64,000 bases of DNA from Escherichia coli (GTDB lineage: Bacteria > Pseudomonadota > Gammaproteobacteria > Enterobacterales > Enterobacteriaceae), in the NCBI RefSeq assembly GCF_003019035.1, contig NZ_CP027448.1; one strand, 5' to 3'. Every line of letters begins with the position of its first letter. Within the stretch, counting starts at the first letter, position 1. A program made the position numbers and the translations under genes. Below, piece by piece: positions 4,119 to 57,530 of this stretch. The notes below the pieces were generated by a model that worked only from the letters and a program-made list of their open reading frames with translations, was not told where the DNA came from and searched no databases.

Positions 4119-4978
4119 TTAAAGATATTGTTTAAACCATTGTGTCTGCACAGCTACTACACGTTCAAAAAACGCGCCCTCATAAATATCATAATGGCAT
4201 GCATCAGCTTCCTCGTATAATTCCTTAGTACCAGAAGCAACAGCATCATATAATGCTCTTCCCTGTTCCGGTGGATTAACGCTATCCTGGCCGGCAATAA
4301 CAACCAAAACTGGGCACTGGACGCTGGCTGCACTCTCTGCCGGTTTATATTGCAACGTTTCCATGACCGTAAGGAAAGGTATTTTTATATCCATTTCGGG
4401 ATGCCGGGCTTTGATTTTCTCGAAGAATACCTTCGATTCATTATCACTTAGTACCCGTGTAACCCCCACAAACATCTCTTTCCCGGTGTTTTTCTTCTTC
4501 TCTGCCATTTTATTCAGCGTGGATAGAAAAGACGCTCTCTCCGATTCATTCATCTCTCCGGTAACCAGAACATCACCGTCAGCAAAAGCCAGCTGGCTGA
4601 CAATACATTTTACGCGTTGGTCCTGCGCAGCTGCACTGAAGACATGCCCCCTCCCAGCGATGTTCCCCATAACCCAATACGCTGATTATCAATACATTCC
4701 TGCTTTTCTGCCCAATTGATAACTGAAATAATATCTTCGGTCTGCATTGCAGGAACCAGACGCCCTCGTTCTCCATCACTCTCACCGAATCCTCGATAAT
4801 CAAAAGTAATCGTTGCGAATCCTGCTTCTGTGAAGGCATTCGCAAAGCAAGGGAGCAGAACATTCCTGATACCGCAAAACCCATGGCATAAGATAATCAA
4901 CGGATGTTTTATATTTCCTTCAGGAACACGAAATGTCAGGGCAATACCTTCAGAGAGTTTGTGATCCGTAATTTTCAT
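4119..4978 (-). pseudogene. Frameshifted alpha/beta-hydrolase (dienelactone-hydrolase-like) gene
   Basis: Two overlapping ORFs in different frames (4610..4978 with GxSxG elbow GLWGTSLGGG, and 4119..4670 continuing ...GHVFSAAAQDQRVK...) that read as one hydrolase if a 1-nt shift near 4620..4660 is corrected. Confidence 0.6.
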
Positions 4979-44079: not shown

Positions 44080-45565
<1,486 letters not shown>

Positions 45566-45777: not shown

Positions 45778-46341
45778 TCAGGCACGCAGACGAATAATCA
45801 TCGTCGGGACATCGGTATAAGCAAACGTGCCGCGCGGCAGCTCCTCGCGGACGTCAGAAAACGGTAACAGCTTCTCCTGCTGGCGTGGTCCGTTGAGACA
45901 GACGGCGACCAGCACGCCACCCGGACGCAACAGGGAAAAGGCCCGCAGGATATGCCGGATATCCTGCCCGTGGCTGAACGGCGGATTCATGATAACCCGG
46001 CTGTAATACTGCGCCGGCTGCCATTCCATGAAGTCGCCACACTGAACCCTGACACCGTTAAAATTTTCCCGCAGATACCGGACCAGCCCGCTGTTGATTT
46101 CCACCGCATCACACATGGCCCCCGGCGCGGTATCCCGAATCGCCCGCAGTATGGCCCCGGTGCCGGCAGAGGGTTCCAGAATGTGATCACGGTTGCTGAT
46201 CTCCGCCAGCATCACCAGGCGATCACAGACCGGGGCAGGAGTCACAAAAAGCTGAGATTCAGCCCGGATTTCAGCAACCGGCGCGGCGTTATCCAGCCTT
46301 GCGCGCATCAGCCGGATACGTTCTCTTAACTGACTGTGCAT
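45778..46341 (-). CDS. SAM-dependent methyltransferase (NPPF motif)
   Basis: 187-aa ORF with motif I-like EPSAGTGAI and motif IV NPPF. Confidence 0.75.
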   Translation of the reverse strand: MHSQLRERIRLMRARLDNAAPVAEIRAESQLFVTPAPVCDRLVMLAEISNRDHILEPSAGTGAILRAIRDTAPGAMCDAVEINSGLVRYLRENFNGVRVQCGDFMEWQPAQYYSRVIMNPPFSHGQDIRHILRAFSLLRPGGVLVAVCLNGPRQQEKLLPFSDVREELPRGTFAYTDVPTMIIRLRA

Positions 46342-46388
46342 GTCATTATCTCCGTCATCCCCCGGGGATTTTCCCGGGGGGATATACC

Positions 46389-47750
46389 TTATTTCTGTGG
46401 AATTTCCGTGATTTTCATGTCGGTGATATACACATTCACCAGGCGGAAATTATTGTCCATTGTGCGGCGGTAGCGGTATGCCCCGTGGTCTTCTGCTTCT
46501 GCCACACTGCGCACGGCCTTACAGTCCCGGGGCAGGGCGGCCCACTGTGCCTTTGTCATTTCCCGGAAACCTTCCCCCGGATAGTTGACTACCGGCGGAC
46601 GCTTCGCGGCCTGACTGGCGACGGCAGCCTCTTCTGCCGATGGTGCTTTGTAGTCCGTGATGCGATCGGGCGTCACTTTCATCGTGCCGCTGTACCCGAG
46701 AAAACTGTAATTTGGCGTTGTGACTGAACTCACCACCCCGTTGCTTTTGTTCACACGGATGATGGTCAGCCACTCGCCCCGGCTGAAAACCTGTCCGCCC
46801 GGCTCAAAATCCTGTGTCCGGGTAACCACGCCGCCGCTTTCGTCCAGCATGGCACGCTCATAGATCAGGCGGTTCTGATAGTGGTTAACCCAGCGTTGCT
46901 GACGCTGGATCTGCCGTTCATGACAGCGGATCGCAATTTCGCGGGCCTGCTCCGTGGTGATGATGTCATCATCCAGGGCCGACCATAACGATCGACTTCC
47001 TTCATACTGGCTTTTTTCTGCCGGGCGCGGATACGTATCCAGCGGGAAACAGGCGCTAATATGGTCATGACTGCTGATGAGTTTTGCCATATTCAGATCC
47101 AGCGATTCAGCCCGCCACATCGTCAGATATTTCTGCGACTGTGCGATGGTCTTTTCAGCCTTGCGCAAATCAGCTTCGATTTTTTTGATACGACGCCAGC
47201 GAACGTCCGGACGTTCTTTATACTTCGCGTGAAGCAGTGCCGACCGCGCGCGTTCTTCCCAGTATTCCGCACGTTCAAAGAGCATCACGGCACGTTTCAT
47301 GCCGTTTTCAATACGCTGCGCATCACGACGGGCGCGGCGTTCGCTGTGATGCCCCACAAGAATGGGCTGACCGGGCGGGATCATCGCGGCCAGTCTTTCC
47401 ACTTCATCAAGTGCCTGTGCGGATTCACTGGCCCGCTTTCCGCTGTATCCGGTAAACCGCTCCGCCCGTGCTTCCTGACGTTCAGCGAGCGTGCTGTCTT
47501 CATCCTCAATCTCTCCGGCAAGTGAGAGGAGCACGTCTTCCCGGCCCGGTGTCCAGGCTGGCGCGACAAACAGCGCCTGTTTGGGTGCCCAGCGAAAACC
47601 GGCATCATGCACTTTTTTATACGTCTCCGGGTCGAGGCGTGACGCGGCATACAGGCGCAGTTTGTTGTCATCCGGTGAGTAGGTCGCGCGGTACATCTGC
47701 ACAGGGCTGGCGGCTTCCGGGGCGGTCATGGTGATGGCTGCTAATGTCAT
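46389..47750 (-). CDS. Leading-region protein, DUF3560-like
   Basis: 453-aa ORF in the operon between repeat copy 3 and the methyltransferase; family assignment from memory only. Confidence 0.6.
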   Translation of the reverse strand: MTLAAITMTAPEAASPVQMYRATYSPDDNKLRLYAASRLDPETYKKVHDAGFRWAPKQALFVAPAWTPGREDVLLSLAGEIEDEDSTLAERQEARAERFTGYSGKRASESAQALDEVERLAAMIPPGQPILVGHHSERRARRDAQRIENGMKRAVMLFERAEYWEERARSALLHAKYKERPDVRWRRIKKIEADLRKAEKTIAQSQKYLTMWRAESLDLNMAKLISSHDHISACFPLDTYPRPAEKSQYEGSRSLWSALDDDIITTEQAREIAIRCHERQIQRQQRWVNHYQNRLIYERAMLDESGGVVTRTQDFEPGGQVFSRGEWLTIIRVNKSNGVVSSVTTPNYSFLGYSGTMKVTPDRITDYKAPSAEEAAVASQAAKRPPVVNYPGEGFREMTKAQWAALPRDCKAVRSVAEAEDHGAYRYRRTMDNNFRLVNVYITDMKITEIPQK

Positions 47751-47801
47751 AAAATGTTCTCCTTCCGTCTGTTGCCGCCCCTCGCGGGGCGGCTCACCTC
47801 A

Positions 47802-48032
47802 TCAGTTAAAAGCGCGTTTCAGTTCGAGTGTGCGGAGCACCTGCCCGAAGGCCGTGTTTTTCATGGCGGGGATGTGTACACCACGCCCCCGGTGAAAACT
47901 CCGGGCTATGTGTCGCCCGAAGGCTTTCAGCACGGGGTCAATTTCCGGCGCGGGGATGTCTTCGCGTCTGAAACGGGGATGACGGCGGGGCTTTACAGCC
48001 GCTGCGGAAGGTGAAACAATACTTACCGTCAT
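47802..48032 (-). CDS. Small hypothetical protein (76 aa)
   Basis: First ORF downstream of repeat copy 3, co-oriented with the operon; no family recognised. Confidence 0.4.
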   Translation of the reverse strand: MTVSIVSPSAAAVKPRRHPRFRREDIPAPEIDPVLKAFGRHIARSFHRGRGVHIPAMKNTAFGQVLRTLELKRAFN

Positions 48033-48264
48033 AAATGAAACTCCTTATGACTGTTGAATGGAACCGCAGAAACTGCTCGAACAGTTTTTGCGGTGTGGAT
48101 TAAGCAGGTCCTCCCCGGCCTGCTTTTTTCATATCTGCGTCTGACGTTCTCCGGTGTTTTCCTCCTTCTGTTCCTGCGTTCTCATTACCTGCCAGCCGGA
48201 TGACTGACAGAACAAATAAATGCGTATTGCCGGAGCCTGAAATAAATCCTGATTTTTAAAGAAC

Positions 48265-48880
48265 ATCACCCGTTGAGTTTCGGGAGCCGCGGTTTTGACG
48301 TTTCGCGGGAACCTGCTGCTGTATTCCCTGTGGTATGAACTTCACCCGTTTGAGAACCTTCGCCGCAAGGGGCATCACTGCCACGGCCTGACGCACCTGT
48401 CCTGGGCAGAACGCAAAATTTTTTACCGGGTTTGGGGTAAAAAATTTTGTGGGCTGTTCATTTACCCTGGACAGTCAGTGCGGCAGGTTGTGGCTGTATC
48501 AGCCCCCGGCGACAGGGACTCATACGGGTGTGTGGCACCCGGCAGGCAATGAGCAGGGACCCGCCGCAACGACGGAGAGCGCGTGCGCGAAACGGCGTTG
48601 CCCCTTACATCCCGGCGGCCTTTTGCCGGGATGCCAGGAGCGCAGGCCACGGCGCGACAGAGGCGGCGCGACCGGAACGGTCGCTGCAAGCCAGGGGGTT
48701 TCACGCATCGGACCGTAGCGGCAGCCCGAAACCGCGCCAGCGGGTTCGGCGGAGACTGGCAGGTGCGCCAGCAGCTGCCTGTCGGAGTCGGGCCTGACGA
48801 CCGGATGCCGCCAGGCAGCCGGGAGCCGAAGGTGCGCCCGGCAGACAGAACAACACTGCAGTAGTCAGAATCAGAGCAGC
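48265..48880 (-). repeat. Frpo/ssi-like structured repeat, copy 3
   Basis: Third copy of the repeat; 5' end slightly diverged. Confidence 0.7.
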
Positions 48881-49072
48881 AGATAAAGGAACAACAACAA
48901 CATCAGGAACAGTTCCACAACATAAGAAAGAAACACTCCTGAGTCAGACACATCACAGACGGGAAGGGTAACGGGCGACGCGCCAGCGTGGCCCGCTTCC
49001 CTTCCGGCAGGCGTCAGCCTGCCAGGGGTTTTCGCGCGGGCTGACAGGCGGCCTCCACCGCCTGCCCCTGTA

Positions 49073-49264
49073 TCACCTGTTTCTGCTGCCCTGTAAGATG
49101 TAGTGACCGCCCAGGAAAACCGCCTGCTGATTCGCCACAAAATCGCAGATTTCATCAACAATCTGCGCGGTGGTGAGCGGTTTCTGCCCCATTTCACGAC
49201 GCCGCGCATTAATCACGGCCCTGTAATTACGCAGAATTTCGCGGGTTTCTGTGCTGATATTCAT
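49073..49264 (-). CDS. Small hypothetical protein (63 aa), start overlaps upstream gene
   Basis: Start overlaps the stop of the 140-aa ORF upstream (ATGA); no family recognised. Confidence 0.45.
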   Translation of the reverse strand: MNISTETREILRNYRAVINARRREMGQKPLTTAQIVDEICDFVANQQAVFLGGHYILQGSRNR

Positions 49265-49683
49265 GACATCGTCTCCCCGTCCAGCGCCTGTAACACAACG
49301 TCCATTGCTTCGCGTTCCTCCCTGACGAATGCGTCACCGTCGCCCCCGTTCTCACTCCCGACGGCATACAGGCGCTTCATTTCACTGCCTGCCAGCGCCA
49401 TCACTTTTTCCAGCATCACCGCCGGGACTGTCACATGACGGCTGGCGCGCTTTTCTTCCATCAGTTCACGAACAACGTCGTGAACAACGCTGACATCCGC
49501 ACCATGCTCAAAGGCATCGTCCAGCCGCTGCATGACGGTTTCCAGCTCATCGTCTGCCAGACTCCAGTCCTGAGCTATGTGGCGCACATCCCCACGGGTC
49601 AGCACCACGGCAAAAACGCATTCACTGTCCGGCACGTCTGTATCCAGCACTTCGCGGATAATTTCTTTAACAGTACAGTACAT
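49261..49683 (-). CDS. Leading-region acidic protein, possibly DUF1380-like; paralog of 51390..51824
   Basis: 140-aa ORF MYCTVKEIIREVLDTD...VTVPAVMLEKV... sharing the MY.T N-terminus and VTVPA motif with the 144-aa ORF at 51390..51824. Confidence 0.6.
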   Translation of the reverse strand: MYCTVKEIIREVLDTDVPDSECVFAVVLTRGDVRHIAQDWSLADDELETVMQRLDDAFEHGADVSVVHDVVRELMEEKRASRHVTVPAVMLEKVMALAGSEMKRLYAVGSENGGDGDAFVREEREAMDVVLQALDGETMS

Positions 49684-49729
49684 GTTCTCGTCTCCTTTAC
49701 AGGGGCGGCATTGCCGCCCCGTCCGTTAA

Positions 49730-50155
49730 TCAGTCCAGTGCCGCGTAAATCGCGTTACATTCGGGGTGAAATTCGATGTGGCTCCACAACTGCGCATCGC
49801 GCATCCTGTACAGGTGAGTCAGTCCTGCATCACCGCTGTCGTGGTACAGCCACAACTGACGGTTAATCACAAGGGAAGTCACAATGATGCCTGCGGCATC
49901 GGCGCTGACCGTACGGTCAAACCAGTTTTCACCGTTCACCATGTGGAAACGGTCGCCATCCGGCATCATGTAACCGCCACCGTCCGGCAGGCGGATGAAG
50001 TGCCAGAATCCGCCTTCATATTCCGGCATCATTTTTTTCGCCAGCGCGTACACAGATGCCTCGGCATACAGAAAATCATTGCCAAACAGATACAGCAGAA
50101 AGGAGAGACGGTCGCATTCTTCAACATTCAGAGTGACAGGTTTCGCATACTGCAT
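49730..50155 (-). CDS. Putative antirestriction protein (ArdB/KlcA-like)
   Basis: 141-aa ORF from [41 protein letters not shown]... with GGAGG Shine-Dalgarno; family call from memory, moderate certainty. Confidence 0.55.
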
Positions 50156-50567
50156 GGGATTTCCTCCGTTGTTCACATATTCCGCGACACCGGGCGGTGC
50201 CGTGCCTCCATAAAAGCCGGGCGATAAGGCGGGGATGCACAGGGCGCAAGGGAAGCCGCAGCCTGACGCACACGGCTGACGGGAGTTGGAGGGGGAGACC
50301 GCGAAATCTGAGCGGGTGAACGACCGGAAAATCACGGCAGACGGGAAGGAGGGACCGGGTGACCGCAGCGTTCATTTTACCCTTGCATCCCCGCCAGCCC
50401 GGCTAAGATGGAGGCACGGCACAGCCCGCACACGACACGGTGGCCACATAACTGAAAACCCACAAGGCCATGCCTGCATGGCCGGGTAAAGCGGAGCCGG
50501 CGGCGACTTCCTTTGTGCTCTGTCCGGGGACCGGCAGAAAAAAAAGCGGGGATTTTCCCCGCCATCA

Positions 50568-51344
50568 TCAGCCCCTGATTTTTGCCAGGGCATCCGCCAT
50601 GCTGCGGATTTCGGCCCGGGCTTCCCGGACAACTTCCCGCAGAACACCACGGTCAAACCTCTGGCGGGGCGGTTCATCCGGTATACGCAGCACATCGCAG
50701 GCCAGCCCACTGGACAGGATATGTTCAATACAATCGCTGACCAGATACATTTCCACCGCCGAAAAACGTGCGCCCCGGTTCAGGATGGCATCGAGCACCA
50801 CGGGCAGGTTTTCGTCGTCCTCATCGAGCCAGCAGGGGTGATCGCTTTCCTTCACGACCAGGCGAAAGCGGCGCGTCTGGCGGGTCAGTAACGTCTGACC
50901 AGTGGTGGTCAGCGCCGCCCGGATACGCCGCGTATCTTCTGCCACCCGGCAACTGACACTGCGTACCGCATCGCGCACCGCCGCAAGTACAGCCCTGATT
51001 TCGTCTTCGGTCAGCCATTCACCGGCATACGGAAAAGACACCTGCGTTCCGTCTGCCGGAAGTACCGGCAGCGACTGCCACTGACTGCCGGACAGTACAA
51101 GTTCCTCCCCGGTTCCGGTCAGTTTGTGAATGGCGGAGGCCAGGAGCGGCGGCAGTACGCCGCCGTGACGGTTTATAAGTAACGTCGCCAGCTGGGGCGC
51201 ATCCAGCCGCACGTAAATGCTGATCCAACCCGGATAGTTCGGGTTTCGCTGGTCAACATCAGTCTCTTCCGGCCAGCCCTGCGCCAGCAGCAGGTCGCGG
51301 GCGTGACGACAAATCAGTGCATTCAGCGTTGTGTTTTCGTTCAT
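50568..51344 (-). CDS. Hypothetical leading-region protein (258 aa)
   Basis: Long ORF co-oriented with neighbours; no family recognised. Confidence 0.65.
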
Positions 51345-51389
51345 GATTAATCGTTCTCCCTGTATCGCCGCCCGGAGGCGGCGATAACA

Positions 51390-51824
51390 TCAGTCGTTTT
51401 CGTGTGTGTTGTTTTTCAGCAGGCTGCGGGTCTGATTAACCACCGCCTGACGGCGGGTGACGCATTCCGGGACGGCGAGGCCGTTATCACGGGCGGCCCA
51501 TTCACGCTTCCACAGTGCCTGTTCAGCGGTCTGAATCAGGGACGCCAGCAGTTCAGCAGGGACGGTCACCTGGCGGTTTTCACTCACGTTGCTGATAATC
51601 TCCATCGCCGCACAGGAAGAAATACCGGACTCAGTCCGCTGGTCTTCCGGGATGTCCTCCAGCCGCGCCAGGACGGTCCTGATTTCATGATCGGACAGGG
51701 AAATATCCATTCCGTCAGCGAGGGCCTGAGTTTCTTCCGGGGACCAGATAACCAGCATCAGCGGCGTGTCTCCCGGATACTGCGCTGCCAGCTCCCGGCA
51801 CAGCGTTTCGCATGTTCCGTACAT
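51390..51824 (-). CDS. Leading-region acidic protein, possibly DUF1380-like; paralog of 49261..49683
   Basis: 144-aa ORF MYGTCETLCRELAAQYPGDTPLMLVIW...VTVPAELLASL... Confidence 0.6.
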   Translation of the reverse strand: MYGTCETLCRELAAQYPGDTPLMLVIWSPEETQALADGMDISLSDHEIRTVLARLEDIPEDQRTESGISSCAAMEIISNVSENRQVTVPAELLASLIQTAEQALWKREWAARDNGLAVPECVTRRQAVVNQTRSLLKNNTHEND

Positions 51825-51837
51825 TCTCGTCTCCTTC

Positions 51838-52059
51838 TCAATCTTTGAAGCAGGAATCCAGTTCCAGAATTTCGGTATACGCCTCCATAAACAGGCGATT
51901 GGCGCGATACAGCGTCTGGCGTGTCAGGCGTTCAACAAGCACATCGGAATCAAAGCGACAGCGATGCTCCATATCGTTCAGCCTGGCCCGAAGGTCACAC
52001 ATGGTGTTGGCCACCTCCGCCACGTCGGCGCGAAGTTTTTCGTGTCCGGCATAGTTCAT
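51838..52059 (-). CDS. Small hypothetical protein (73 aa)
   Basis: ORF abutting the methyltransferase stop at 52060; no family recognised. Confidence 0.45.
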   Translation of the reverse strand: MNYAGHEKLRADVAEVANTMCDLRARLNDMEHRCRFDSDVLVERLTRQTLYRANRLFMEAYTEILELDSCFKD

Positions 52060-52743
52060 TTACGCAGCCTCCGGTTCAAACCAGTTATCATTCGCGGCCC
52101 CCTGCTGCATGGCCCGTTGCACGGCGGCCATTCGTTGCTGTCCGGCACGGTGATACTGTTCAAGCAGCTCGATACCGATATACCGGCGTCCGGACTGAAG
52201 GGCGACCACGCAGGTTGAGCCGCTGCCTGCAAACGGGTCCAGCACAATCGCGTTCGGATGTGTGAAGCTCTCAATCAGTGGTTGCAGGCTGGTAACGGGC
52301 TTTTCCGTCGGGTGATGGCGGTTGCCTGAATATTTCCAGCCCAGCACGTCCGGCAGCAGGTTTTGTGGCAGACGTGGACGGCCTTTTGCCAGGATGTAGG
52401 CGCATTCGTGGCGATAGCCCACATATGCGGCCTTCGATGTGTAGTTTTTGGTGAAGACCAGGTGCTCGACCACACTGAATCCCGCATTTTTCCAGGCGGC
52501 CATAAAGCGATCGACGCGGTTCCAGCCATAGAGGCTCACCATCAGCGCGTCTTTTTTCAGCACACGGTACATTTCATTACAGGCCGGTTGCAGCCATTCA
52601 TCGGTTTTATCACCCGCGATGGTACGTCCCTGACGGTCACGAAAACCGACGAGGTACGGCGGGTCAGTCAGCATGAAATCAATGGCGTTATCAGGGATAC
52701 GGGCCATAACATCGATGCAGTTACCGAGGACAAAACGGGACAT
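52060..52743 (-). CDS. Orphan DNA methyltransferase (beta-class N6A/N4C type, DPPY motif)
   Basis: 227-aa ORF with DPPY early and FAGSGST later (motif IV before motif I), YhdJ-like order; no adjacent restriction enzyme gene. Confidence 0.85.
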   Translation of the reverse strand: MSRFVLGNCIDVMARIPDNAIDFMLTDPPYLVGFRDRQGRTIAGDKTDEWLQPACNEMYRVLKKDALMVSLYGWNRVDRFMAAWKNAGFSVVEHLVFTKNYTSKAAYVGYRHECAYILAKGRPRLPQNLLPDVLGWKYSGNRHHPTEKPVTSLQPLIESFTHPNAIVLDPFAGSGSTCVVALQSGRRYIGIELLEQYHRAGQQRMAAVQRAMQQGAANDNWFEPEAA

Positions 52744-53126
52744 AACAACGCTCCTTCTTTCACAGAGGGCACCGGGAGGGCCCCCTGTGGTGCCCGTTCC
52801 CCGCTGCCTGTGGGCTGTTCACCGCGTCCGGTAACTGGTCAGGCCGACCGTGGAATACCGCAGCCGTCGTCTTTTTGACGGCAAGGTTATGCCGCGAAAG
52901 CGGCTTGAAGGGCGTTCATCAGAAAAGGGCGACGGGCTGGCGTACACTGTCACCGACGCCAGCCGGGAGCGGTAAAAGCGACCGTTCCGTGCCCGCCGGA
53001 CGCGGGACACTGACCACAGGCAGCGTTCCTGCCGCGCCGCGTCAGCCGGCGCAGTAAAAAGAGGAGCACGGCGACATCCTTTGTCGGAAAAGAAACGGGC
53101 GGTTGCCCGCCCGTCTCCGTCATACT

Positions 53127-54446: not shown

Positions 54447-54695
54447 ATGATCCGCATTGAAATTCTTTTCGACCGCCAGAGCACAAAAAACCTCAAATCA
54501 GGCACACTTCAGGCGCTACAGAATGAAATCGAACAACGACTGAAACCACACTACCCGGAAATCTGGCTGCGTATAGACCAGGGCAGCGCCCCGTCTGTAT
54601 CTGTCACAGGAGCCCGCAACGACAAGGATAAAGAACGTATCCTGTCTCTGCTGGAAGAAATCTGGCAGGACGACAGCTGGCTGCCTGCAGCATGA
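54447..54695 (+). CDS. impC: ImpC (DinI-family SOS regulator)
   Basis: MIRIEILFDRQS...ILSLLEEIWQDDSWLP resembles the DinI C-terminus; first gene of an imp/umu-type operon; track ORF starts earlier at 54387. Confidence 0.75.
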   Translation: MIRIEILFDRQSTKNLKSGTLQALQNEIEQRLKPHYPEIWLRIDQGSAPSVSVTGARNDKDKERILSLLEEIWQDDSWLPAA

Positions 54696-55129
54696 GTACC
54701 GTTTATCACCGTCCGGCTGACCCTTCAGGCGATGACAGTTACGTGCGACCGTTGTTTGCCGATCGTTGCCAGGCCGGTTTTCCTTCGCCTGCCACTGATT
54801 ATGCTGAGCAGGAACTGGATCTGAACAGCTATTGCATCAGCAGACCTGCAGCCACCTTCTTTCTGCGCGCCAGCGGTGAATCGATGAACCAGGCTGACGT
54901 GCAGAATGGTGATCTGCTGGTAGTGGACAGGGCCGAAAAACCACAACACGGGGACATCGTTATCGCTGAGATCGACGGTGAGTTCACCGTCAAACGACTG
55001 CTGTTGCGCCCACGCCCGGCACTGGAGCCGGTTTCAGACAGCCCGGAGTTCCGCACACTGTATCCGGAAAACATCTGTATTTTTGGTGTTGTCACTCACG
55101 TGATACACAGGACGCGGGAGTTACGCTGA
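54692..55129 (+). CDS. impA: ImpA (UmuD-like S24 peptidase-domain protein)
   Basis: 145-aa ORF with LexA/UmuD-type Ser-Lys dyad context (ASGESM ... K) and overlap with impB start. Confidence 0.85.
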   Translation: MSTVYHRPADPSGDDSYVRPLFADRCQAGFPSPATDYAEQELDLNSYCISRPAATFFLRASGESMNQADVQNGDLLVVDRAEKPQHGDIVIAEIDGEFTVKRLLLRPRPALEPVSDSPEFRTLYPENICIFGVVTHVIHRTRELR

Positions 55130-55251
55130 TGTTTACACTGGCTGATATCAACAGTTTCTACGCCTCATGTGAAAAAGTTTTCCGCCCGGACCTTCGCAAC
55201 GAACCGGTCATCGTACTCAGCAATAACGATGGCTGTGTGATCGCACGCAGC
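55126..55251 (+). pseudogene. impB: impB (UmuC-like Y-family polymerase), 5' fragment cut by insertion
   Basis: MFTLADINSFYASCEKVFRPDLRNEPVIVLSNNDGCVIARS matches the UmuC N-terminus, then leaves homology and hits a stop at about 55284. Confidence 0.8.
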
Positions 55252-55301
55252 CCAGATTATGTGGAATTGCAAGTAACGTTGTAGTGCTGATGAGGAAAAT
55301 T

Positions 55302-57530
55302 TTATCTGACTACAATATTGATATCGTTTTCCGCAACAATCAGCATCACGGCAGGTAAACCCTCCACACGCATTTTCTGGTGTAATTTTTTGATTAAATT
55401 ATCATCTTCATTACTGGCTTTTGCGGAAAAGCCTTGTGGATGGGAGTGCCATTCGCCAACATAATCGACAACACGAGCGGTCAACTGGTGAACCCGTTCT
55501 AATGCTTCTTGTTGTCCCGCTTCTCCCCGGACAAAGGAGGCTGGAGAGGATTTACTGTCGATAGGTTCAGGGAGCACGTCAACCAGAATAATCGTTTTGT
55601 TCTTAAAATCTGTTATGCCAACAATTGCACCTCCTGTTTCATTAGGCAGTGCCTGTAAGCGGGTGTGCTGCAATTTTTGCGCTAAGCCCTGGTCATATTT
55701 AACAACCCATTCGCCAGAAATTATAGATACCACGGAATAGAGTTCAATTTCATGTGCATCCATCGCGCCTGATATTTCATCAGATACCCAGATACACAAT
55801 CGAGCATTTCCTTTGAGTGCAGTCTGGCGAAGTTGGCGTGAGAGGATACCGGCATGAACATGAATACATTCACTGGACATACGTACAGAAATATCCCGAC
55901 ATCCACCACCGACCCAACGATCGCCATAATTGTGCTGTAGGTGAGTACTTCCCCACTCACTGCTCAAAATTGCCCGATAGTATTGCCCCTCAATTGCATC
56001 AATTCGGCATTGTCTGTCTACATCCTCCATTAACATCACGCTAGACTGACCCGATGGAGTCAGAAACAGGCTAACTATTCTGGGTATATCATCTTTTAAC
56101 ACTAGAGTCCTCGGCACCTCAAAGGTGGTACTGACATCCACAACTAAGTCTGCCTCATTCATTGCCTTAGCAATATCATCATCGTCATCAAGAATACTTT
56201 TATGGATCGCCTGAGGGAGGGGCTCATGCGGATAAATAGATTTGGCAATATGCTGAATAATATGGGGTTTTGAGACTCCAATATGACAATCAAACCCAAT
56301 ATGGCGAGACAAATTATGTGGAAGAAGCCGATCTGGATCAATAAAAGTCCATGTCCCCCACCCCATTCGAATCCAAATATCAGCCAATGTACTACCAAGA
56401 GCGCCAACTCCAGCTAAAATACCTCGAAAAGCTGCACTCTCTGAATCAACAGCAGATATGTCTCTCGCATGTGTGGCCTTCATAGCCGAACGTATTTCAA
56501 CTGGTAAAAGCGGTAATTGTCGCCACTTGGTACTAATTGATCCGCCAAGAAGCCGTACGCGATGCTGTACTCCTCGCTCATTTTTTGGCGCCAGCATATC
56601 TAGTGCAGTGGCAAGTTCACCGAGTGAACTTTGCACAACATAGCCCATCACATCCGTACGTTCTGTTTCTCCGTTTCTTAGACGGGGGATCCAAAGCAGG
56701 ATAAGTAAGCCTTCTCCTTTACCAGACGTTGGGCGGATACCATCACTTGGTATTGCTTCATAAACAGCGTCAGTTAGTGGTTTTAGGAGCTCACTTCCCC
56801 ATTCATTAAGTTGTTCTTCTAATTTTCCCAGATTATCCGGGTATGTAGCCACCGTAGAAACATCGACAGGAGGAACAGCAATAGTTAATAAGCGAAATGG
56901 CTTAACGCTTGAGGTATCTTGTTCTGGTACAGCCCTTAAAATAATCGGTCGCCCCTCACTGACCATCTGGAGACTGAGCTTATTGTCAGTCGCGTGATGA
57001 TAATCGGGGTAATTGGCTGGCAAAATGAGCTGATAGGGACTCAAATAAAAAAGTTGCTCAAGTGGCTGATCTTCTCGATGTAGATGCAGTTCGGCCGATT
57101 CTCTAAGCCACCAAAAAATGCGCTCAAGGAATCTCTCGGGGGTCCAACTGCGCTCAACTGCGCTCCAGGAGGCCTCATATAGGCAAAGAATTCGTGGTGA
57201 GCCAGGTTCTCCAGCATGCTGGTGAGAAAGAACAGGGAAATCTTTCCGCAATGCATGAACCAAGATAGGTATGCTTGATTTGGGATTGACCTCAATAGCC
57301 AATCGTTCTTTACGACGAATACGGGCTTGATTACCAGAAGCCACAGTCCCATCAGCAGCATCAATGATTAGATATTCCGAGCGGTTATCATTTATTTCAG
57401 AAAATCGTAATTCTCTGACTGTGACGTAAGGATGATTCTCGCATGCTTTAAGCAGCGAAATCGTTTGTGGATAAAGGCTATCGCGCCCCGATGAATCGAG
57501 GCGCTCACCCAATTCGAAATATTCGATCAT
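55302..57530 (-). CDS. Fused E2-like / E1-like (ThiF/MoeB) / JAB-MPN peptidase protein
   Basis: 742-aa ORF: N-terminal H...C pattern (HQHAGEPGSPRILCLY, UBC-like); central Rossmann GILAGVGALGSTLADIWIRMGWGTWTFIDPDRLLPHNLSRH (E1 signature); C-terminal JAMM-like EWHSHPQGFSAKASNEDD. Confidence 0.75.
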   Translation of the reverse strand: MIEYFELGERLDSSGRDSLYPQTISLLKACENHPYVTVRELRFSEINDNRSEYLIIDAADGTVASGNQARIRRKERLAIEVNPKSSIPILVHALRKDFPVLSHQHAGEPGSPRILCLYEASWSAVERSWTPERFLERIFWWLRESAELHLHREDQPLEQLFYLSPYQLILPANYPDYHHATDNKLSLQMVSEGRPIILRAVPEQDTSSVKPFRLLTIAVPPVDVSTVATYPDNLGKLEEQLNEWGSELLKPLTDAVYEAIPSDGIRPTSGKGEGLLILLWIPRLRNGETERTDVMGYVVQSSLGELATALDMLAPKNERGVQHRVRLLGGSISTKWRQLPLLPVEIRSAMKATHARDISAVDSESAAFRGILAGVGALGSTLADIWIRMGWGTWTFIDPDRLLPHNLSRHIGFDCHIGVSKPHIIQHIAKSIYPHEPLPQAIHKSILDDDDDIAKAMNEADLVVDVSTTFEVPRTLVLKDDIPRIVSLFLTPSGQSSVMLMEDVDRQCRIDAIEGQYYRAILSSEWGSTHLQHNYGDRWVGGGCRDISVRMSSECIHVHAGILSRQLRQTALKGNARLCIWVSDEISGAMDAHEIELYSVVSIISGEWVVKYDQGLAQKLQHTRLQALPNETGGAIVGITDFKNKTIILVDVLPEPIDSKSSPASFVRGEAGQQEALERVHQLTARVVDYVGEWHSHPQGFSAKASNEDDNLIKKLHQKMRVEGLPAVMLIVAENDINIVVR

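Follow-up and report, generated by a model that had tools for sequence, protein, structure and literature searches.

The leading regions of the F plasmid and of pESBL carry operons homologous to those of the locus analysed here. Wen et al. (2025), using RNA sequencing and 5' rapid amplification of cDNA ends, found the Frpo-, klcA- and M.EcoGIX-type operons of pESBL to be strongly induced in transconjugants, with three classes of single-stranded DNA (ssDNA) promoter; the F operons encoding KlcA and methylase homologues are also induced, and transcription before second-strand synthesis is an experimental finding for these homologous operons of F and pESBL (PMC12672017). Samuel et al. (2024, Supplementary Table 1) ranked the protein families of leading regions, about a third of the most prevalent being uncharacterised. 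Here we analyse three small open reading frames (ORFs) in a 64,000-nucleotide stretch of Escherichia coli DNA (RefSeq assembly GCF_003019035.1, contig NZ_CP027448.1), referred to below as the window, within which an F-like conjugative plasmid has its leading region at approximately 44 to 54 kb, with the genes there all on the minus strand. The three ORFs are as follows.

47802..48032, minus strand: ORF1, a 76-amino acid (aa), very basic (isoelectric point, pI, 11.9) protein of the YdaB type
49073..49264, minus strand: ORF2, a 63-aa basic protein, UniProt 'Plasmid protein', encoded last in the KlcA operon
51838..52059, minus strand: ORF3, a 73-aa acidic (pI 5.3) protein of the YubE family (PF27407, phrog_4830)

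These are genuine small-protein genes; we consider it probable that they are carried in three early operons, and that each has the biochemical role that we infer for it below.

Coding status, conservation and annotation

Diverged copies of the three genes from Salmonella, Erwinia, Edwardsiella, Klebsiella and IncI/K plasmids were used for coding tests. In Nei-Gojobori alignments the ratio of nonsynonymous to synonymous substitution rates (dN/dS) in the annotated frame is 0.13-0.28 for ORF1, 0.03-0.29 for ORF2 and 0.13-0.34 for ORF3, and third-position changes are clearly in excess; reading these alignments in either shifted sense frame gives values of about 0.9-3.2. A six-frame test, which used the corresponding ratio of proportions (pN/pS), finds that the annotated frame alone is both stop-free in every homologue and constrained (0.07-0.41, compared with about 0.9-3.1 in the shifted sense frames). 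The annotated frame remains open in relatives as distant as 35-54% identity, and binomial tests of the excess of synonymous changes give p values ranging from 0.05 in near-identical pairs to 7e-8 in the most diverged. Shifted sense frames and most antisense frames have stop codons in at least one member of each compared pair. The antisense frame that shares its wobble positions with the genes has a low pN/pS, as expected, yet carries stops, and the only other frame open throughout, antisense frame 0 of ORF3, has a pN/pS of 1.1-2.2 in three diverged comparisons.

Gene length and gene order are conserved as well. The lengths of 76, 63 and 73 aa hold down to 44%, 33% and 35% identity for ORF1, ORF2 and ORF3 respectively: 90 of the 120 ORF1 matches listed are 76 aa long, 81 of the 120 ORF3 matches listed are 73 aa long, and the diverged relatives of ORF2 (33-65% identity) have 58-67 aa. 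A ribosome-binding site precedes each of the three, with AAGGAG located 8 nt upstream of the ORF1 ATG and GGGGAG upstream of that of ORF2; ORF2 and ORF3 have coupling junctions as well, and synteny is kept across IncF, IncI/K, Salmonella, Erwinia, Edwardsiella and Klebsiella plasmids. As judged by these comparisons of sequence, the three ORFs are genuine and strongly conserved protein genes.

An earlier note on this DNA, made from its sequence alone, had placed three ORFs of 76, 63 and 73 aa here, where we also find them, on the minus strand, and the junctions that it described are confirmed: the start codon of ORF2 and the TGA of the DUF1380 gene before it share bases (ATGA), and the ORF3 ATG follows directly on the TAA of the methylase gene (TAAATG). 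ORF3 ends 13 nt before the next DUF1380 gene. The tight packing that it reported applies to ORF2, to ORF3 and to the 3' side of ORF1, which is 51 nt from the DUF3560 gene, but not to the 5' side of ORF1, where there is approximately 1 kb of non-coding DNA with a Frpo-type copy. It had argued for real translation, and named as grounds for abandoning this a lack of conservation of the frames and a neutral pattern of substitution; the frames are conserved and the substitutions depart from neutrality, so that translation is strongly supported by conservation, synteny, substitution pattern and the published transcriptomics of homologous operons. Its description of the ORFs as unannotated is incorrect, as RefSeq lists all three in close relatives as hypothetical proteins (ORF1, WP_000218642.1; ORF2, WP_001027516.1 or WP_011254642.1; ORF3, WP_001104873.1). 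Each is present at full length in at least 5,000 of the 72,556 PLSDB plasmids, always as a 'hypothetical protein' feature, and the exact sequences of ORF1, ORF2 and ORF3 occur in at least 1,000 contigs each. The three ORFs are not novel, one of them belonging to a named Pfam family (YubE), and because the genes are already annotated their discovery as such is ordinary.

Three operons and their putative ssDNA promoters

At 90-99% identity, a 6-kb query around the three ORFs has matches in at least 5,000 plasmid records, most of them for conjugative plasmids of Escherichia, Klebsiella, Salmonella and Shigella. In the 5' to 3' direction of the minus strand, the first unit consists of an N6/N4 DNA methylase gene, ORF3, a DUF1380 gene and a gene for a 258-aa protein; after a gap come a KlcA-type antirestriction gene, a DUF1380-like gene and ORF2; and after about 1 kb of non-coding DNA there follow ORF1, a DUF3560 gene and a class I S-adenosylmethionine (SAM) methyltransferase gene, downstream of which is non-coding DNA and then ssb. 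The features of this region, all given on the minus strand, are these.

52744..53126, minus strand: intergenic region upstream of the methylase gene with a strong ssDNA fold, at the position of the class 3 ssDNA promoter
52060..52743, minus strand: orphan N6/N4 DNA methylase, its stop codon abutting the ORF3 start
51390..51824, minus strand: DUF1380 (YubF-type) gene, starting 13 nt past ORF3
50156..50567, minus strand: intergenic region upstream of klcA with a strong ssDNA fold on the template strand, at the position of F ssp2 (class 2)
49261..50155, minus strand: upstream partners of ORF2, the KlcA/ArdB-type antirestriction gene and the weak DUF1380-like gene
49730..50155, minus strand: KlcA/ArdB-type antirestriction gene, matching PF03230
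49261..49683, minus strand: DUF1380-like gene in the place of yubJ, with a Pfam score under the threshold here and a RefSeq annotation as DUF1380
49003..49072, minus strand: two GC-rich hairpins directly past the ORF2 stop, at the 5' edge of the Frpo-type region
48264..48887, minus strand: second Frpo-type (class 1) ssDNA-promoter copy, folding strongly on the plus (template, T) strand
47774..47793, minus strand: GC-rich stem-loop GCCGCCCC-GCGA-GGGGCGGC, 8 nt past the ORF1 stop
45778..47750, minus strand: cargo downstream of ORF1, comprising the DUF3560 protein (46389..47750) and the class I SAM methyltransferase (45778..46341)

Folding of the template (plus) strand as ssDNA gives z-scores of -8.0, -5.4 and -6.3 for the regions upstream of ORF1, klcA and the methylase gene respectively, and none of 100 shuffles is as stable as any of the three. 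The element upstream of ORF1 is homologous to the Frpo region upstream of ssb in F and is 97% identical over 300 nt to the window's own copy upstream of ssb, a position at which both the window and F carry a Frpo-type element. An IncI/K plasmid has the same methylase-ORF3 and KlcA-DUF1380-ORF2 arrangements. Homologues of ORF2 and ORF3 are present in F, from which the ORF1-DUF3560-methyltransferase module is absent, in agreement with an older comparison that found genes common to R100-like plasmids yet missing from F (PMC2797631).

We propose for the arrangement as a whole, by analogy with F and pESBL, that the ORFs would belong to three separate early ('zygotic') operons of the F-like leading region, each behind an intergenic region predicted to fold into a large hairpin on the transferred strand, and that these regions would correspond to those of F and pESBL that act as ssDNA promoters within the first minutes of entry. 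On this operon membership, all three ORFs are most probably expressed early after transfer.

RefSeq places short coding sequences inside the Frpo-type repeats (window 44940-45146, minus strand, and approximately 48549-48797, plus strand; 953-1159 and 4550-4798 in comparison locus L001), one being a 68-aa 'single-stranded DNA-binding protein' and another a plus-strand 'hypothetical protein'. As these lie in structured non-coding promoter DNA they are probably spurious.

The position of the three ORFs raises the question as to whether one or more of them serve specifically to counter host defence, as anti-restriction, anti-CRISPR or SOS-inhibitor-like proteins that would bind an immune protein of the host and block it. 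They lie among genes for KlcA, methylases, SSB and PsiB, in a region where anti-defence genes are statistically over-represented (PMC11541004); their products are small and their expression is probably early; and ORF3 is acidic. Furthermore, F transfer into restricting strains falls at least 21-fold on deletion of ssp2, the promoter of the operon whose last gene is the ORF2 homologue, although this phenotype has been attributed to yfgB (KlcA/ArdB). ORF1 and ORF2 are basic, unlike typical DNA-mimic inhibitors. The SOS inhibitor PsiB and the known anti-CRISPR and anti-restriction proteins share leading-region location and small size with the ORFs, and the profile and solved-structure searches made here detected no further similarity, by sequence for the three ORFs or by fold for ORF1 and ORF2. 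None of the three ORFs matches the PsiB, Antirestrict or ArdA models (PF06290, PF03230 and PF07275) at E <= 1, a search in which the neighbouring KlcA gene does match PF03230, nor is there any match in NCBIfam or PADLOC, and the models of ORF1 and ORF2 have no fold match. The hint in the earlier note at PsiB-type and anti-CRISPR-like factors thus finds no direct support. Profile hidden Markov models detect no paralogues of the three ORFs in the window, in F or in the other loci, and we found no functional literature on yubE, ydaB or AreA.

The ranking of Samuel et al. (2024) bears on the same question. Family 1, the largest uncharacterised one, has 4,739 members named YdaB, YdfB or YgdA, and ORF1 probably belongs to it on names and positions, because its 2,014 YdaB-named members are close in number to the 1,913 members of the DUF3560 family; the ORF1 profile detects no YdfB- or YgdA-type paralogue in the window or in F. 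Family 6 has 4,048 members, mostly named 'Plasmid', at a median gene position of 15, beside the KlcA family at 16 and the DUF1380/YcjA family at 15. The exact ORF2 sequence is the UniProt 'Plasmid protein' Q1A2M1_ECOLX, and ORF2 is probably a member of family 6, again by name and position. Family 11 (3,388 members) has a median position of 20, between DUF1380 (19) and methylase (21), a position that ORF3 fits. The three ORFs thus very probably belong to three of the largest uncharacterised leading-region families, and families 1, 6 and 11, which likely correspond to them, are entered as 'NA' against anti-CRISPR and anti-restriction sequences and structures. Location by itself makes an inhibitor function possible, and on this evidence it seems unlikely for any of the three.

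ORF3 and ORF2 in the methylase and antirestriction operons

ORF3 is a member of the YubE family. Precomputed PF27407 assignments, labelled 'YubE' in genomic-context data, are present on all 120 homologues listed, among them proteins in which ORF3 occurs as a 100%-identical copy, and there is a full-length match to phrog_4830 (residues 1-73 of 73, E 9.8e-37); despite the latter, no match to ORF3 was found in a phage genome collection. The gene lies at the same place as yubE in F and shows nothing to distinguish it from the family, whose function is itself uncharacterised. Sequence-profile searches of solved structures revealed no relative of ORF3, only weak matches to coiled-coil segments. The protein (pI 5.3) lacks proline, and its only glycine is residue 5; a heptad pattern is formed by hydrophobic residues at positions 9, 13, 16, 20, 23, 27, 30 and 34, and there is a second amphipathic stretch at approximately residues 40-71. 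From the heptad pattern we infer a helical hairpin of two long amphipathic helices.

The most constant feature of ORF3 is its junction with the methylase gene. Its location between an N6/N4 DNA methylase gene and a DUF1380 gene is found in plasmid leading regions including that of F, and in 14 of 15 distinct intact junctions, at identities down to 35%, its start codon is contiguous with the stop codon of the methylase gene or overlaps it (TAAATG, TAATG or ATGA). The fifteenth is in Erwinia, where the methylase has been lost and remnant junction sequence is kept. The ribosome-binding site CCGGAGG lies within the 3' end of the methylase gene and is conserved in enteric loci, with a GGGAG variant in Rahnella. 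These junctions indicate that translation of ORF3 is coupled to that of the orphan DNA methylase, and a protein coupled in this way is most likely a partner or modulator of the methylase or of the DUF1380 protein encoded after it.

Two annotation details concern this junction. In RefSeq the DUF1380 gene that follows ORF3 has an N-terminal extension overlapping ORF3 by 70-107 nt (L001 7390-7908; F, L003, 6966-7520; equivalent to approximately 51390-51907 in the window). The extended start is probably an artefact of annotation, because the window ORF starts at an ATG at 51824 with its own ribosome-binding site and the Pfam DUF1380 profile aligns from residue 1. In a protein collection clustered at 90% identity the YubE sequence groups with the 227-aa DNA methylase, which suggests either read-through fusion proteins in some assemblies or an artefact of clustering.

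ORF2 belongs to a small, plasmid-only family. A word-indexed search found only near-identical relatives, many of them with altered C-termini (frameshifts, duplications and junctions); diverged 63-aa homologues were found through synteny, and an exhaustive HMMER search with the ORF2 profile recovered 132 cluster representatives among 1.84 billion. We discounted P0409, a 1,899-aa cysteine-rich repeat protein whose 13 'matches' to ORF2 involve only a repeated 'AQIVDES' motif. The diverged members are encoded in leading-type regions of several plasmid backbones, beside genes for ArdA, ArdC, DUF905, DUF3560 or relaxase proteins. In every context examined ORF2 is the last gene of its operon, coming after klcA-DUF1380 where the plasmid is of the IncF or IncI/K type, and after ardA in Erwinia and in a metagenomic plasmid. 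To its 3' side there is either a canonical terminator or a conserved pair of GC-rich hairpins with which the next Frpo-type region begins; the hairpin pair is kept after the ORF2 homologues in the F, Salmonella and Erwinia loci, and since the hairpins at 49003..49072 begin the Frpo-type region they mark the end of the operon. We also note a similar motif after the class I methyltransferase gene, such hairpins forming the 5' edge of each Frpo-type region.

An AlphaFold2 model of ORF2, based on a 23-sequence alignment, has a mean predicted local distance difference test score (pLDDT) of 91.9 and consists of helices at residues 5-24 and 32-44 followed by a beta-hairpin at 48-57. Neither a fold search with this model nor a sequence-profile search found a match among solved structures. 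The Foldseek list is enriched in winged-helix domains, but all E-values are above 1 and TM scores do not exceed 0.48, none of these matches being significant; a ribbon-helix-helix assignment was rejected on the same ground of significance and because the topology differs, there being no beta-alpha-alpha order with an N-terminal strand. We propose that ORF2 is most likely a small binding or regulatory subunit with a compact fold of two helices and a beta-hairpin.

A more specific version of this idea is that ORF2, as the final product of the antirestriction operon, binds DNA and regulates its own operon, by analogy with the repressor KorC of the IncP klcA-klcB-korC operon of R751. Both are small proteins encoded last in an operon that starts with klcA; DNA binding by ORF2 is putative, and there is no sequence relationship between the two, hhalign giving a probability of 0.6% that rules out assignment as a KorC homologue. 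As the proteins are unrelated the regulator idea is an analogy only, and we consider it rather improbable.

The last ~15 codons of ORF2 (49073-49120), conserved in distant relatives, are in E. coli plasmids often replaced through frameshifts, internal duplications or junctions with other sequence. The boundary between ORF2 and the Frpo-type region looks like a hotspot of recombination or deletion.

ORF1, its variable cargo and a 3' RNA hairpin

ORF1 owes its name to one homologue called YdaB by UniRef and to a record using classical names in which the ORF1 gene directly precedes ydbA, the DUF3560 gene. A scan of a genome collection found 33 loci across the Enterobacterales, down to 44% identity, over which 15 residues are invariant; the invariant segments are the C-terminal helix GQVLRTLELKR, a V-x-x-P-A loop and R20 and R23, these two standing in an otherwise variable, basic N-terminal tail. 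The AlphaFold2 model (pLDDT 79) has this tail at low confidence followed by a helix-loop-helix with pLDDT above 90, the helices spanning residues 33-47 and 59-75. Neither the fold search with this model nor sequence profiles against solved structures gave a match. A weak match to PF14908 (HU-CCDC81_euk_1) at residues 25-62 is present in all 50 ORF1 family members, some of which NCBI names accordingly. ORF1 is small and basic as HU is, but the PF14908 match is below threshold (20.1 bits against a cut-off of 26.1), hhalign gives 12% against HU/IHF, and the model lacks the beta-ribbon arms that are the DNA-binding part of bacterial HU, so we reject an HU/IHF-like assignment. ORF1 is very basic, and in this plasmid group its gene comes directly after a Frpo-type promoter copy; most likely it is an establishment factor that binds nucleic acids.

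The gene following ORF1 falls into six classes over 37 loci: an N6_Mtase-like protein of approximately 276 aa (15 loci), DUF3560 followed by a class I methyltransferase (12), a protein of approximately 125 aa (5), a third protein class (3, with DUF5983 in the representative scanned), DUF4942 (1) and SSB (1). A tie to a single enzyme was considered and dismissed, the downstream methyltransferases of Klebsiella and E. coli being unrelated. The N6_Mtase-like genes found after ORF1 homologues in Klebsiella, Pantoea, Erwinia and Yersinia (L032 6275-7111, L037 6292-7122, L009 10277-10951), each with a 176-aa KlcA-like gene next, match only positions 25-117 of the 311-position N6_Mtase profile, and their products may be truncated or non-catalytic. 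In Salmonella plasmids there is an additional 75-aa gene just upstream of the ORF1 homologue (L016 14602-14829; L015 15117-15344), which the ORF1 profile does not detect and which has no Pfam match, a further small uncharacterised gene of the leading region.

Whatever gene follows, a GC-rich stem-loop of 8-9 bp lies approximately 5-15 nt past the ORF1 stop in all 38 loci. There are 20 distinct perfectly paired variants and one with a single mismatch, with 13 different loops, and three independent compensatory changes have altered pairs on both sides. A formal count finds 99.4% of cells paired, compared with 43-78% when the partner is slid, and the covariation score is reached by only one of 500 shuffles. 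One-sided C-to-T changes produce G-U wobbles on the sense strand only, pointing to an element that probably acts in the mRNA rather than to a palindrome of double-stranded DNA or a structure of the T strand. A T-run follows the hairpin in three Buttiauxella loci, where it resembles a terminator, and elsewhere the ribosome-binding site of the next gene is found. We suggest that the hairpin would probably stabilise or partly terminate the transcript, and so set the output of ORF1 relative to that of its variable cargo.

The hairpin raises the possibility of a mainly cis-acting ORF1, a leader whose translation would combine with the hairpin either to attenuate read-through into the cargo or to permit it, the peptide itself mattering little. 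Consistent with this, in each of the 13 closer-related loci (>=68% identity) no other ORF precedes ORF1 behind the Frpo copy, a Frpo-like match lying no more than 900 nt upstream, and the conserved hairpin, terminator-like in Buttiauxella, comes immediately 3' of the stop. However, the amino acids of ORF1 are under strong purifying selection (pN/pS 0.21-0.28, with the 15 invariant residues noted above), 76 aa is unusual for a leader peptide, and in diverged plasmids the gene is inside an operon; we regard a purely cis-acting ORF1 as improbable. Equally speculative is a scheme in which ORF1 and its covarying hairpin form a portable expression adaptor, with the arginine-rich protein binding the hairpin, or stalled transcription or degradation machinery, and tuning read-through from the ssDNA promoter into the cargo. 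Phage N/boxB antitermination and autoregulatory RNA-binding loops offer comparisons for such a device, which if real would be a new regulatory layer of plasmid establishment common to thousands of Enterobacterales plasmids.

The least credible alternative, that the three ORFs are open by chance or as 'shadow' frames of conserved DNA that is non-coding or codes on the antisense strand, as their shortness, the long antisense ORFs that overlap each of them and the wealth of conserved structured DNA in the region might suggest, is effectively refuted by the dN/dS and six-frame tests, in which the annotated frame alone is both open everywhere and constrained, and by same-length protein homologues down to 33-47% identity.

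Several observations do weigh against our preferred reading of three early small-protein genes with the roles proposed. No functional homologue of ORF1, ORF2 or ORF3 was found by sequence, nor of ORF1 or ORF2 by fold. Frequent replacement of the ORF2 C-terminus in E. coli plasmids, through frameshifts or junctions, points to relaxed constraint or to dispensability. Some methylase-DUF1380 operons, those of Edwardsiella, lack YubE, which is therefore an accessory rather than an obligatory or essential gene. The six classes of downstream gene show that ORF1 is not bound to one partner, and its diverged relatives lie inside an operon with no Frpo element or unusual hairpin directly upstream.

The three ORFs are among the most widespread plasmid genes of the Enterobacteriaceae, in operons that would be transcribed within minutes of the entry of a resistance plasmid into a new cell, and their functions would help to explain how F-like and IncI plasmids establish themselves in new hosts. 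The analysis is of moderate value as a pointer to these very prevalent uncharacterised proteins of plasmid establishment, and it supplies rules of context, namely the coupling of YubE to the methylase, the terminal place of ORF2 in antirestriction operons and the constant association of ORF1 with a covarying RNA hairpin.

Elsewhere in the window, a 742-aa ORF (55302-57530, minus strand), in which Prok-E2_A, ThiF (E1) and Prok-JAB domains are fused, is matched by the E1-E2 and JAB models that PADLOC uses for accessory proteins of the CBASS type. It lies beside umuD (54692-55129) and a umuC fragment (55129-55284) that is cut to 51 codons, and looks like a defence-related gene inserted in the plasmid umuDC operon.

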